Sequence record: MK327940.1
DNA: 64,000 nt
Strand: one strand, 5' to 3'
From: Escherichia phage vB_EcoM_G29
Positions 12,319 to 39,442 of the stretch are shown in pieces; positions within the stretch are counted from its first letter, which is position 1; each line of letters starts with the position of its first letter. Made by a program: the position numbers and the translations under genes. The notes below the pieces were generated by a model that was not told where the DNA came from, did not search any database, and saw only the letters and a list, made by a program, of their open reading frames with translations.

Positions 12319-13792
12319 TTATGGATAGGTATAGATGATACCAGTTTCTAAAGCAGTTTTATGAATGATGTATCCATTGCGTGATTCTTGAACATCAACT
12401 TCTGGATAGTCTTTCATCATCTTCTGAAGAGTGTAACGATGCAGGTAGTATTTACTATCTGGATCTTCAGTTTTCCAATCTTTACCTTCTTCGGTCATTT
12501 TTTGGATTTCATCCATAACCCACCAACCGCACCAGATATAAGCTGAAGTGCGATGTGGAAGAGGATGAACATAAGGCAATTCACCTTCTGGTTCCGGAGC
12601 AACTTTATCAGTTACCTGAACTTGGCCTGTTGCTTTAACTGTTTTACTATCATAGTCGGTTGCTGTAACGGTTGCAGTAACTTCAATAGTTTGACTTCCA
12701 ATAGATGATGTATCAACCGTGTATACATTAGTTGATTCTTCTACAGGAGAAGAATCTTTCTTCCATGAATATTCGATTTGTGCTTCTTCTGGAGCATCCG
12801 TAACATTAGCAGTAAATGTAGCCGAAGCATCTTGCTGAACGTTAATAGAAGGAGGAGTCAATGTAACCTGTGGATTCATTGTCTTCTTATTAACTGTTAA
12901 TGATACTTCATTAGAAGTAACTTCCTTTTCATTGTAATTTTCAGCCGTTACTTGGGCTACGCATTTAATTCTTTTTACTCCACTTGTAGTTGGAGTATAG
13001 TTAAATGTAGAGTTAGTTTCTCCACCAATTTGAGAATCATCTACATACCATTTATATGTAGCAGACGCTCCATCAGGTTGAGAAACCAAGGCAGCAGTAA
13101 ATTGAACTGGGGTTCCAATTACTCCAGCTGGAGGACTATCAGGAGTTACTGCCAAGGTAGTTGTCTGCGTCTTTTTATTAACAGTCAGTGACACTTCATT
13201 GGAAGTAACTTCCTTTGTATCATAATCTGTCGCGGTTACTTGAGCTACGCACTTAATTGTTTTAACTCCGCTTGCGTCAGGAGTGTAATTGAATGTAGTG
13301 CTAGTTGCTTCGCCCACAGGAGAACCGTCAACGTACCATTGATACGTAGCGTTTGCACCTGATGGCTGTGAAGCTAAGGCAGCCAACGTACCATTGATAC
13401 GTAGCGTTTGCACCTGATGGCTGTGAAGCTAAGGCAGCGGTAAATTCAATTGGAGTTCCAATCACTCCAGCATCAGGGCTACCAGGAGTTACTGCCAAAG
13501 TAGTTGTTTGTGTCTTATTTTGAACTGTGATAGTTGTACTAATTTCAGCTGTTTCAGGTTCAGATTCTGCAACTTGATTGGTTGCAACTACTTTAATAGT
13601 CTTTTGACCGGCAGGTCCTTTTAGTACATAACTAAAAGTTGCTGACGTTTCTTCCTGTGGAGCGTCGTCTACAGTCCAAGCATATGTAATAGGTCCATCT
13701 CCAGTTTGACCACTGGGTGTAGCAGTAAACTGCTGAGTCTGATCTATAACTCCAGTAGGTGTTTTAGGAGTTATATCAACTGTAAAAGCCAT
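12319..13792 (-). pseudogene. hoc: hoc (highly immunogenic outer capsid protein) disrupted by a 55-bp tandem duplication; split into track ORFs 13328-13792 and 12319-13413
   Basis: Tandem Ig-like repeats (TLAVTP...ATYQWYV) plus C-terminal capsid-binding region recalled from T4 Hoc; the peptide ALASQPSGANATYQWYV is encoded twice in different frames; the second ORF starts at GTG with no RBS. Confidence 0.85.
13329..13438. repeat. perfect 55-bp direct tandem duplication (2 copies: 13329-13383 and 13384-13438) inside hoc
   Basis: Both copies read caacgtaccattgatacgtagcgtttgcacctgatggctgtgaagctaaggcagc, identical base for base. Confidence 0.95.
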
Positions 13793-27010: not shown

Positions 27011-29062
27011 TTATCCTTGAACGAACTTGTAAGGCATGTTTGTAATATCTATGCAAGACGCAATAATTCCAAGAGATGATTCTACTTTCTGTTTAACATT
27101 TGATGAAACAAATGATGCAAAGTCAACTCTATCTTCTATATCACCTGTCATTGTAACTACTTCGCCGGTTTCCATTAAACGGTCACCGTCATAAATTACT
27201 GATTCGGTGAGTTCTTCGGTGGTCATAACTTCAGCTTGAATAAGCTTGTTGTTAGTTTTGACTGTTCCATCATTGTAAGATGCATCAGTTATTTTATTAA
27301 CTTTGACCATTAATCCACGTGGCAAAATGACTTCCATTTCATTTGAAGGCGCTAAACTTCCACCGGGTAAAACAACATTGACTTTATCAGCCCCAGTAAT
27401 AACCCATCCAATTCCGACTAAATTATCGCTAGAATTAACAAGCCCTTCATCATTTTTATCGATAGAAATGTTTAGACGCTTTTCATCTGGTAAAACACCA
27501 ACAGCTGAATCAGTCATCCAAGTACCAAAAATGTTTGGATATAATGATGTTGATACAAAATTTCTAAAATAAAAAACTCGATTTTTTACCATTGCTTCGT
27601 ATATTGAAGGTAACATTCGTTGTGAACGATACAAAGTAATACCTTTTGGTAATCGTTCACCATTTTTAAAGGCTGAATCTAAATTATCAATAGCTTTTTC
27701 TATGTCAGATGCTGTCAAAATACTTGTACGCTCATCTGGATTATATAATCCCAAAAGAGCATTATTTATGTCTACATATCCTGAACCTACGTATTCACGA
27801 ATTCCGCGTTTTTGTGCTGGTGTGTATTTAGATGAATCTTTATTTTCGACTATAGGATGTAATGACCATCCAGCTGTAAGAGCATATCCACGTAATTCTC
27901 TTCGAATAATCTTTGTTTTTATTGCATTCCAAGAATTTTGTACTAACTCATTTGCAGCATCTTGGTTTAAATGCGAATGTTTGTTAATATTTCTTTCAAA
28001 CCAAGCACCTTTATATTTTTCTAAAGTATTATCGACGATAGAAGCAATAGTTTCTAAAGTTTTTATTGAAGTAATAGATTCTTTTCGTAATTTTTCTAAA
28101 GCTTTATTTTTTATTTCTGCATTAATAATGGATTCTTTATCTTCAGGAATTATAGAAGCTTCTCTGAATGCCATCCCAGCTGTAACACTGCTAAGAGCAT
28201 TCTCTAGTGCAAATCCTGAAGTAGAAATTACCGTTAATTCATTAGAATCAGAAATTAAAGGCGCATCAGCGGGTTTATTTAATTCTGCTGCTGAAGCCTC
28301 AAATTTTTGAAACATCGGTGTTTCAAATCTAGAAGATTCCAATGACTGACTTTGTGCAATTGCTCTACGGGAAATTTTAACTTTAACGATTACAGCTTGG
28401 TCAGAACGTTTATCATTTTCTTGTGCAATAGATGCTGCAATTGCCTCATTTTTGGTTACTTGAGCTCCGGTATCTTTATTGATATAAACATCACCGACCT
28501 TCGATTCAACTTTAGTAAAGAGCTCGGTACTAATTTCCGGAACTCCTGGAATGTCTTCTAGTGATACATTTTTGCGATGTATAAGAATATATGCATACTT
28601 TTTATCATAATCCCAGAGTTCCTTAAGAAGGACGTATCTGCCACCTGAACGACTACGGATAAGTCTATCAGCAATAACTTGAATTTGTCGAGCTTGATCA
28701 GCGGTTTTAGACTTAAGAATACGAAGCATACAAGCATCAATTTTATACTGACGCATTGTTTGCATTGCAACAGTAAAAACTGAATTGATATAATTAATTG
28801 GGCTTGGACCAAGACCTTTTAATTTAGCAATTGAACCTTTAGCGGTTAATGTAAAAGGAACAATATGCATCATTTTATCGCCCATTTTTAAATCGCGATT
28901 AGTATCACCTCCAGATGTATAGGTACATAAACGAAAGCCTGGTTGTTCAATTGCATCATCAACATGAACTGAAAAAATTTGCGGTATTTTCTTCTTTGGA
29001 TTTAAGTTTGTAATCGGAAGAGTAGTATCTTCGTCAAATAATTCTGTAATAAGTTCCATCAT
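27011..29062 (-). CDS. alt: Alt ADP-ribosyltransferase, head-packaged (683 aa)
   Basis: 683-aa ORF adjacent to gene 30 as in T4; ART motifs LYRSQ, FVSTSL, NEMEVILPRG; late TATAAATA upstream. Confidence 0.9.
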   Translation of the reverse strand: MMELITELFDEDTTLPITNLNPKKKIPQIFSVHVDDAIEQPGFRLCTYTSGGDTNRDLKMGDKMMHIVPFTLTAKGSIAKLKGLGPSPINYINSVFTVAMQTMRQYKIDACMLRILKSKTADQARQIQVIADRLIRSRSGGRYVLLKELWDYDKKYAYILIHRKNVSLEDIPGVPEISTELFTKVESKVGDVYINKDTGAQVTKNEAIAASIAQENDKRSDQAVIVKVKISRRAIAQSQSLESSRFETPMFQKFEASAAELNKPADAPLISDSNELTVISTSGFALENALSSVTAGMAFREASIIPEDKESIINAEIKNKALEKLRKESITSIKTLETIASIVDNTLEKYKGAWFERNINKHSHLNQDAANELVQNSWNAIKTKIIRRELRGYALTAGWSLHPIVENKDSSKYTPAQKRGIREYVGSGYVDINNALLGLYNPDERTSILTASDIEKAIDNLDSAFKNGERLPKGITLYRSQRMLPSIYEAMVKNRVFYFRNFVSTSLYPNIFGTWMTDSAVGVLPDEKRLNISIDKNDEGLVNSSDNLVGIGWVITGADKVNVVLPGGSLAPSNEMEVILPRGLMVKVNKITDASYNDGTVKTNNKLIQAEVMTTEELTESVIYDGDRLMETGEVVTMTGDIEDRVDFASFVSSNVKQKVESSLGIIASCIDITNMPYKFVQG

Positions 29063-36421: not shown

Positions 36422-36756
36422 TTCATAATCACCAGATAAGCAGATTTAGCAGTTTCAACACGATAAATTTCGTGACGAAGTTTAGTTATACTTTTAATAA
36501 CAGAACTAATTATATTCTGCCCATCTTTAAAGCGGTTTTTCTTATCAATAAAAATTGCACCAGCCATCTTTTTGTGAAGCTCAACTGGATACTTCGTCAC
36601 AATAATAGCATCATACACAGAAGGATGAATACTATTCACTAGAGTATCGTTCATTAAAGTTATTCTAATGAACTGTGCTGTTTCAGAGTCAAGCGCTCTA
36701 TGATCGCCAGTATCATTTTCAAGACAATTATCAATTATATCAGTTAAATTCATCAT
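36418..36756 (-). CDS. hypothetical protein, 112 aa (cd.1-like)
   Basis: ORF overlapping the cd start. Confidence 0.6.
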   Translation of the reverse strand: MMNLTDIIDNCLENDTGDHRALDSETAQFIRITLMNDTLVNSIHPSVYDAIIVTKYPVELHKKMAGAIFIDKKNRFKDGQNIISSVIKSITKLRHEIYRVETAKSAYLVIMK

Positions 36757-36989
36757 AGTACGCCATACACCCTTTGTGCTTCAACTAATCCATCAAAATC
36801 CAATTTGAGATGTGTTATTTGGTCACCATCACCTGGATTCACAATTACTAATACCGAACGAGGAGTTTCGGTAATAACACGAACCGACGTTTCAGGAAAT
36901 CGTTCAGAAACCTTATTTACCAATTCTTGAGCAAATAGTTTAACTTTTTCTTGGAATTCTTTAACAGTAATTGGTTTTTCGCTTAGCAT
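36753..36989 (-). CDS. hypothetical protein, 78 aa (cd.2-like)
   Basis: ORF with ATG start, overlapping neighbours. Confidence 0.6.
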   Translation of the reverse strand: MLSEKPITVKEFQEKVKLFAQELVNKVSERFPETSVRVITETPRSVLVIVNPGDGDQITHLKLDFDGLVEAQRVYGVL

Positions 36990-37498
36990 GTTGATCCTAG
37001 CTCCTTACTTTCAACATTTTTAACTAATTTGACAGAAACTAATTCAGCATCTTGGGTAATCATTACCGGACCTTCTTCATGCTCTTCAAGATATTCTAGA
37101 GCTTTCTTTTTAGCTTCTTCCTTCGTATCAGTTTGAGCATAGATATAGAACATACAACCAGTAATACCTACTACTTTCCACTTAATTTCTTTATCAGTTT
37201 TAATTTCAAATTTACTTACAGAATCATCTTTTTGAACTTCTTCGAAAAAAGAATATTCTAACATATAAGCAATTGAAAATAACGGGCTAACTTTATAGGA
37301 TTCACCCATTACATCAACAGCTTTATACCAACAATCATCAATTTCACGTTTAATGCTAATAACATTTTTCGCAGGATCTATTTTTACTTTAAATGAATTT
37401 TCCCCAATAAACTGGGCAATTCGTTTATTAGCCCCCGCAAGTTTCATTAAAAATATCTTTATATCCAGCTTTAAAGCGATAAACCTTATCTTCTTCAA
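36983..37498 (-). CDS. hypothetical protein (cd.3-like); start ambiguous, possible frameshift relative to promoter-proximal ATG at 37511
   Basis: Track ORF starts at TTG 37498; the SD-preceded ATG at 37511 opens a 27-codon frame ending just after a C5 run (37432-37436); first in-frame ATG at 37447. Confidence 0.55.
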   Translation of the reverse strand: MKKIRFIALKLDIKIFLMKLAGANKRIAQFIGENSFKVKIDPAKNVISIKREIDDCWYKAVDVMGESYKVSPLFSIAYMLEYSFFEEVQKDDSVSKFEIKTDKEIKWKVVGITGCMFYIYAQTDTKEEAKKKALEYLEEHEEGPVMITQDAELVSVKLVKNVESKELGSTC

Positions 37499-37541
37499 AC
37501 CATTCGCTCATTTCAATTTCCTCATTTGTTTTGGTAGAGCT

Positions 37542-37571
37542 ATAATATCACAACTCTACCGTAAAGTAAAC
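37542..37571 (-). promoter_or_regulatory. early promoter (GTTTAC-N18-TATTAT) upstream of cd.3-like ORF
   Basis: Minus-strand motif pair followed by GAGG and ATG at 37511. Confidence 0.5.
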
Positions 37572-37573
37572 TA

Positions 37574-37849
37574 TTAAATTGCTTTGAATTCTGATGTCTG
37601 TGATTCAAAGCGAATGTCGCCTTTGATAACTAGCTCAGCATCAAGACCAAATACAACAATGATATGCGCGGAACCTGGATACAACGTAATGGCAATAGAA
37701 TCCACCTGGTCTGGAAGCAAAGCGTTCAATACATGAGTCACTTGAGCGTGGATTCGAAGTTCAGCTGCATTATCAAGCTTTTCAAACATGTTATTAGCGA
37801 TAATTTGGCTAAACACTACTTCTACGATTTTAGAGTAAGTCGGAAACAT
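37574..37849 (-). CDS. hypothetical protein, 91 aa (cd.4-like)
   Basis: Track start TTG 37879; ATG at 37849 with GAGGT upstream. Confidence 0.55.
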   Translation of the reverse strand: MFPTYSKIVEVVFSQIIANNMFEKLDNAAELRIHAQVTHVLNALLPDQVDSIAITLYPGSAHIIVVFGLDAELVIKGDIRFESQTSEFKAI

Positions 37850-37851
37850 AT

Positions 37852-38052
37852 TTACCTCACATAATTTTCTTCGAGCCAATCAATAACATCCAAAGCGTTA
37901 TCAAAAGTTGCGCCATCTACTTTGTCTTCTGTTTCATAATCAAGAACATCTAGGCCTACTCTTCCGTCAACAATAGGCCATAGACAAAATAGATATTTCT
38001 TTTCTTTTTCAATTTTATCACAAAGACGATAAATCTTTTCTAGGTTATTCAT
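37852..38052 (-). CDS. hypothetical protein, 66 aa
   Basis: ORF with ATG start. Confidence 0.5.
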   Translation of the reverse strand: MNNLEKIYRLCDKIEKEKKYLFCLWPIVDGRVGLDVLDYETEDKVDGATFDNALDVIDWLEENYVR

Positions 38053-38241
38053 ACGTTTTCCATGGTAAAGGCAGTTTAGTTTTCTTTACTGTTAGTTCAA
38101 CATCAGGATTCTTTTCTCTTAATTTAAGGCATTCCTCCCATGCTCTATTTTCACTAGTGAATACACAAAATTGCCCATTACTAGTACCGACTAAACCACT
38201 ATTTACAATAATAATAGCCCAAGTTTCATGATGCAAAGCCA

Positions 38242-38242
<1 letters not shown>
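38045..38242 (-). CDS. hypothetical protein, 65 aa, coupled to pseT
   Basis: ATG at 38242 overlaps pseT stop (TAATG); track ORF extends to 38272 into pseT. Confidence 0.5.

Positions 38243-39442
<1,200 letters not shown>

Follow-up and report, generated by a model that had tools for sequence, protein, structure and literature searches.

We analyzed a stretch of 64,000 nt from the genome of Escherichia phage vB_EcoM_G29 (MK327940.1; the strain is called G29 and the whole stretch the window hereafter) and found that a small early gene is interrupted by one additional G within a short run of Gs. We consider it probable (about 0.8), based on comparisons with related genomes, that this locus represents a strain-specific frameshift allele of an accessory gene, in which the extra base is real and the interrupted frame is not the product of programmed recoding. 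The lesion was directly observed in two genomes, G29 and G4500, and its occurrence is restricted to the clone that they form.

Organization of the frameshifted locus

The initial annotation of this locus had described several elements on the minus strand: an early promoter and a GAGG Shine-Dalgarno sequence preceding an ATG at 37511, a 27-codon frame ending immediately after a G5 run, and a 171-codon ORF in another frame whose only possible starts were a TTG or a later ATG, neither of them with a good ribosome-binding site. We recovered all of these elements (Table 1). The promoter is composed of GTTTAC (37571-37566), an 18-nt spacer and TATTAT (37547-37542), with an extended TG before the -10 element, and it was also detected by a generic sigma-70 scan. 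The 27-codon ORF encodes MSEWFEEDKVYRFKAGYKDIFNETCGG and terminates with two successive stop codons, TAA TAA (37430-37425), located immediately 3' of the G5 run when read on the minus strand (C5 on the plus strand). Residues 1-26 of this short ORF exactly match the N-terminus of the intact orthologues. The long ORF (37498..36983, minus strand; 171 codons from the TTG) lies in the +1 frame relative to the ORF starting at ATG 37511. Its TTG is found at a distance of 21 nt from the GAGG, and we did not find a usable Shine-Dalgarno sequence in the minus-strand sequence at either TTG 37498 or the in-frame ATG 37447. The remainder of the gene is annotated in GenBank as a CDS of 154 aa starting from this fortuitous ATG 37447 (QBO64539.1 in G29 and QBO65911.1 in G4500). 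When one G was computationally deleted from the run, the two frames fused into a single ORF of 175 aa, as the initial annotation had anticipated.

Table 1. Coordinates of the features of the frameshifted locus and of its neighbors in the window.
Feature	Position	Strand	Remarks
Early promoter, sigma-70 type	37542..37571	-	Same as the T4 cd.3-cd.2 intergenic sequence; consensus scan
Shine-Dalgarno GAGG	37520..37523	-	8 nt 5' of ATG 37511; serves cd.2 in T4
Remnant ORF, 27 codons	37428..37511	-	Ancestral codons 1-26, frameshifted Gly and TAA TAA
G5 run, site of the one-base insertion	37432..37436	-	G4 in all orthologues; alignment and indel census
Out-of-frame remainder, ancestral codons 27-175	36983..37447	-	Same as the DalCa ORF after removal of one G
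True cd.3 homologue, DUF7355 / PHROG 1695	37574..37879	-	Upstream neighbor
cd.2 homologue, DUF7320	36753..36989	-	ATG overlapping the stop codon of the interrupted gene; own AAGGAG

Position and identity of the interrupted gene

The promoter and the Shine-Dalgarno sequence of the window are identical, base for base, to the intergenic region between cd.3 and cd.2 of T4, and the T4 record presents an annotated early promoter, Pe133295, between these two genes. Judging from this identity, the match of the promoter to the consensus is not fortuitous, and the promoter is already known from T4. In the T4 genome (NC_000866 133262-133333), only 72 bp separate cd.3 from cd.2 and the interrupted gene is absent. 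Our alignment revealed that the homology between the window and T4 ends just 3' of the Shine-Dalgarno sequence. This break, together with the T4-identical promoter and Shine-Dalgarno sequence, indicates that the ORF constitutes a cassette located between the ribosome-binding site of T4 cd.2 and cd.2 itself. The 175-aa gene (window 36983-37523) has the layout of a presence/absence cassette placed precisely between these two elements: the cassette captures the T4 promoter and Shine-Dalgarno sequence, and cd.2 gains a new AAGGAG within the 3' end of the cassette. The annotations of AR1 and Sf25 also place a gene between cd.3 and cd.2, named respectively 'ar1_225' and 'similar to Shfl2 gp218'.

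Like the cd.1-cd.5 genes of the hyperplastic region of T4, the interrupted gene is a small early ORF with a T4-type early promoter and a variable presence among T-even phages, and it is likewise without an assigned function. It differs from them in that it corresponds to none of the named T4 genes and that its relatives in PHROG 3710 were only found in Tequatrovirus. Within the same cluster, another small difference was observed at position 38215, in the cd.5 region (38045..38272, minus strand), where G4498 presents one T fewer than the window; OMNI12 and DalCa are free of indels at this position, and cd.5 is annotated as shortened to 177 nt in both G4498 and WilhelmHis, which belong to the same species. 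Based on the alignment of the window with G4498, OMNI12 and DalCa, this difference could be another lineage-specific indel of the cluster.

The initial annotation had labelled the interrupted ORF as cd.3-like, and this label proved to be wrong. The DUF7355 domain matches the upstream ORF of 91/101 aa (1.8e-32) and not the 175-aa ORF, and T4, AR1 and Sf25 all place cd.3 upstream, while the ORF downstream of the 175-aa gene is matched by DUF7320/Cd.2. In its intact form, the gene codes for a protein of 175 aa that falls in PHROG 3710, which is, according to our searches, an orphan family confined to Tequatrovirus. We found nothing significant for the intact protein in sequence searches of Pfam, NCBIfam or PDB. 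Only relatives with at least 87% identity, or fragments, were obtained from a set of 5.8 billion proteins (word-indexed search) and from 1.84 billion representatives (exhaustive phmmer search). The single-sequence AlphaFold model of the intact protein is unusable (pLDDT of 41), and the alignment of the family is too shallow to obtain a better one (97% column identity).

Three records of the BASEL collection label the gene 'putative homing endonuclease' (L004 1610-2137, L016 286-828 and L020 883-1140). We found no support for this assignment: GIY-YIG, HNH, LAGLIDADG and His-Cys box domains were all absent from the Pfam and NCBIfam results with E-values up to 1, and we found no relative among PDB sequences. 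A weak match was observed with the GoF-like family PHROG 2980 (E = 0.0046; residues 21-94). Comparison with T4 GoF using hhalign yielded a probability of 0.7%, with residues 2-42 aligned with residues 2-43 of GoF at 29% identity; position for position, the alignment reads F-E..K.Y.FK...F...N..A...G..FK (window about 37386-37508). If this likeness were real, the frameshift would fall within the shared motif, but hhalign gives it no statistical support.

Comparison with orthologues

The orthologous locus was searched in a phage collection from which G29 itself was missing. A query of 671 nt matched 491 Tequatrovirus-type records, with the gene being present in about 300 of them and absent from about 190. 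When the search was conducted with the 71-nt junction, a single record (G4500) matched at 100%, and the other 296 of the 297 records matched over 70 nt. Because G29 is not part of the collection, this best match represents a sister isolate. Relative to DalCa and AR1, a single difference was found over 220 aligned nucleotides: one G, with five Gs in the window and four in the others. The exact 70-mer containing G4 was identified in 110 records, and 300 of the 302 matches obtained using tblastn with the 175-aa query presented a coverage of at least 80%. G4 was present in all the orthologues that we sampled (13/13), among them copies from uncultivated contigs and the most divergent copies (about 95% amino acid identity), and those that are full-length consist of an ORF of 175 or 176 aa starting from the promoter-proximal ATG. 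Exact-pattern scans of IMG/VR, JGI metagenomes and GTDB genomes detected the G5 pattern in 0 contigs, and the G4 pattern was found in three IMG/VR contigs and three metagenome contigs. The presence of G4 and of one ORF in every orthologue examined indicates that neither a two-frame arrangement nor a slippery site is conserved. The initial annotation had stated that its reading would be contradicted by orthologues with the same two-frame organization and an independent start for the long ORF; this comparison uncovered the opposite, one ORF with G4.

The intact ORF evolves under purifying selection in the relatives of G29: we measured a pN/pS of 0.14 over 10 orthologues for the whole ORF, with too few changes in the first 27 codons for these to be considered alone. 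The PHROG 3710 profile aligns from the first residue of the intact protein which, together with the low pN/pS, indicates that the gene functions as a single-frame ORF. Once one G is removed, the ORF of the window is identical to the ORF of DalCa and WilhelmHis over all its nucleotides (528/528). This identity with DalCa suggests that the change is recent and was not followed by secondary decay. On the evidence of these comparisons, the single-frame gene is the ancestral form, and its division into two frames results from a very recent lesion specific to one clone.

Other disrupted versions of the gene were identified. One IMG/VR contig (L005 3082-3360) presents a nonsense codon (Q93*), and the copy of PaulHMueller (L020 883-1140) has experienced an in-frame deletion of 270 nt that leaves 85 aa. 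Further short members of the protein family (P0003, P0015 and P0016) were found among the truncated proteins. The absence of the gene from T4 and from about 190 of the 491 records, together with these independent nonsense and deletion alleles, indicates that the gene is dispensable. The independent truncations observed in other lineages suggest that a gene useful under certain conditions has been lost repeatedly.

Origin and consequences of the additional G

Spontaneous frameshifts of one nucleotide are known to arise in mononucleotide runs by Streisinger slippage, as classically described for the rII and lysozyme genes of T4. The allele of G29 resembles these cases: a base was added within a run of identical bases of a T-even gene, which introduces a premature stop and leaves the rest of the gene out of frame, and the G5 allele likely survives because the gene is dispensable. 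It differs from them in that the phage was isolated from nature and is not a mutant obtained in the laboratory, and in that the run is short (G4 to G5), with slippage being here the presumed mechanism. In the ancestral state, the cassette would have been transcribed from the T4-type early promoter and translated from an ATG equivalent to 37511. One G would then have been added to the G4 run at codons 26-27 in the G29/G4500 clone, presumably by replication slippage. Translation from the strong start would stop after 27 codons at TAA TAA, and the remaining 149 codons would be out of frame and devoid of a proper initiation signal. Because the out-of-frame remainder has no such signal, we infer that the gene is most likely inactivated, and its dispensability would account for the frameshift being tolerated by the phage. 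The event appears to be of a known type: a +1 frameshift of an ordinary kind, specific to one clone, in an early orphan gene that the phage can do without.

The initial annotation had left three explanations open: a homopolymer sequencing error, a genuine frameshift, or a slippery run allowing programmed frameshifting or transcriptional slippage. The genuine frameshift is the best supported of the three, the slippery element does not withstand the comparison with orthologues, and the sequencing error is possible but disfavored. Under this last explanation, the run of the phage would truly be G4, and both deposited assemblies would contain the same homopolymer miscall. Several observations are compatible with such an error, besides the fact that the difference sits in a homopolymer. 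The G5 allele is limited to two records of a single study in which some phages were sequenced on PacBio RSII, at least one artefact of assembly, although of a different kind, is apparent in the G29 record (a 55-nt duplication in hoc, described below), and the absence of secondary decay in the ORF is also expected of an artefact. According to the original study, the two phages originate from the same pig manure source and were isolated on different E. coli hosts (DSM 103247 for G29 and DSM 103262 for G4500); the Illumina pipeline relied on SPAdes with k = 55, and the coverage, listed per phage in the supplement, was respectively 91.7x and 497.8x (Korf et al. 2019, PMC6563267). Over window positions 12100-49999, G29 and G4500 are identical in every stretch compared, except for two junctions bounded by 55-nt repeats. 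The length of these repeats equals the k of SPAdes, and this signature makes it likely that both assemblies were produced from Illumina reads, the study naming PacBio and Illumina without assigning them phage by phage.

The same base was thus called in two genomes that were separately prepared, sequenced and assembled, at 92x and 498x, and two sister phages of the same study, G4498 and KAW1E185, were called with G4. The 154-aa product, which is exclusive to the G5 allele, is annotated in both G29 and G4500; no match to it was found in the Logan assemblies derived from read runs. Indel errors in 5-nt runs are rare in Illumina consensus sequences. We conducted a census of all small indels separating the 64-kb window from G4498, OMNI12 and DalCa, and position 37432 was the sole isolated 1-nt homopolymer indel distinguishing the window from all three relatives; the remaining small indels either compensate one another within clusters located in divergent patches or occur in a single relative. 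The window therefore contains no further homopolymer indel of its own, despite many A/T runs of 5-7 nt. The occurrence of G5 in two genomes, the likely use of Illumina and the uniqueness of this indel in 64 kb make a real allele likelier than an error, even though G29 and G4500 are not fully independent, having been obtained by the same laboratory from the same sample and probably sequenced in the same pool. Overall, we consider a miscall shared by both assemblies to be unlikely.

The G5 run could alternatively serve a function, as a site of programmed +1 frameshifting, a transcriptional slippage site or an on/off contingency tract. A +1 movement of tRNA-Gly from one GGG to the next, which overlaps it, would restore the exact wild-type protein, the stop is found one to two codons past the slip codon, and the short frame is driven by a strong promoter and Shine-Dalgarno sequence. 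These properties are reminiscent of the +1 frameshift of prfB (RF2), in that the shift restoring the protein is +1, the slippery codon could re-pair perfectly (here from GGG to GGG) and a stop is found a short distance downstream. In contrast to prfB, however, the layout of G29 is absent from the orthologues, which all present G4 and one ORF, and the stop is neither adjacent to the slip codon nor positioned in its A site. No SD-like element was found in the sequence 5' of the G run at the spacing required in prfB, and folding of the downstream sequence revealed no stimulatory RNA structure relative to shuffled sequences (z = -0.70). With no conservation, no stimulator and no structure, we rejected the assignment of this locus to the prfB-type class of programmed frameshifts. 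The run also resembles poly-G/poly-C contingency tracts in being an early coding G/C homopolymer whose length sets the reading frame, but these tracts typically contain 8 or more nucleotides, whereas the run contains 4-5 nt here and is an invariant G4 in about 300 genomes. Transcriptional slippage and phase variation are known at runs of about 8-9 nt, and five Gs are far below this length. Since the run measures 5 nt in G29 against 4 nt in the relatives, with no variation of its length in any lineage except the G29/G4500 clone, we also rejected a slippage or phase-variable tract. A function in recoding or phase variation appears extremely improbable.

It is also conceivable that ribosomes finishing the 27-codon ORF restart at ATG 37447 and produce an active, N-truncated protein of 154 aa (MKLAG followed by residues 27-175). 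This ATG is in frame only with G5 and lies 17 nt upstream of the stop, within back-scanning range, and the 85-aa version of PaulHMueller (residues 105-175 with the first 14) suggests that the C-terminal module might be useful independently. However, ATG 37447 has no Shine-Dalgarno sequence and is not conserved, and the 26 residues that would be lost are near-invariant among orthologues and fall within the region matched by the PHROG profile, which makes reinitiation highly unlikely. More generally, it is very doubtful that the G5 allele is down-tuned rather than dead, with a low level of +1 slippage yielding the 175-aa protein or reinitiation at 37447 yielding the 154-aa protein. The frameshift allele of an accessory gene accordingly remains our preferred reading of the locus.

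The two junctions that distinguish G29 from G4500 have consequences for other genes. The head-decoration gene hoc is split in G29 into two ORFs (12319..13413 and 13328..13792, minus strand) by an exact tandem duplication of 55 nt (13329-13383 being identical to 13384-13438), and it is intact in G4500 (1419 nt), where this duplication is absent. The hoc fragment specific to G29 is annotated in one protein record only (QBO64502.1). Since the length of the duplication equals the k of the depositors' SPAdes assembly, it most likely represents an untrimmed overlap between contig ends, that is, an assembly artefact. Conversely, the alt-like gene of G4500 contains 177 extra nucleotides (59 codons) bounded by an exact 55-nt repeat (MK327945.1 123907-124138; window 27962-28016). 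The alt-like CDS (window 27011..29062, minus strand) measures 2226 nt in G4500, relative to 2052 nt in the window and 2049-2055 nt in G4498 and OMNI12, and the extra sequence of G4500 is probably an artefact of graph resolution at k = 55.

The biological weight of this allele is small, as it is one further case in which a dispensable orphan gene is probably inactivated in a particular strain, and its main value lies in the curation of annotations and assemblies. The CDS of 154 aa annotated in both G29 and G4500 corresponds to what is left of a gene after a frameshift, and its annotation should indicate that the gene is disrupted. Two names also call for correction, since this gene differs from cd.3 and we found no support for the label 'putative homing endonuclease' used in some records. 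In the G29 record, the 55-nt duplication, most likely left by an untrimmed overlap, would falsely split hoc. For Tequatrovirus, the repeated loss of this gene, by frameshift, nonsense codon and deletion as well as by its absence from T4, marks an accessory function that would be needed conditionally, and host defense systems might be relevant to it.
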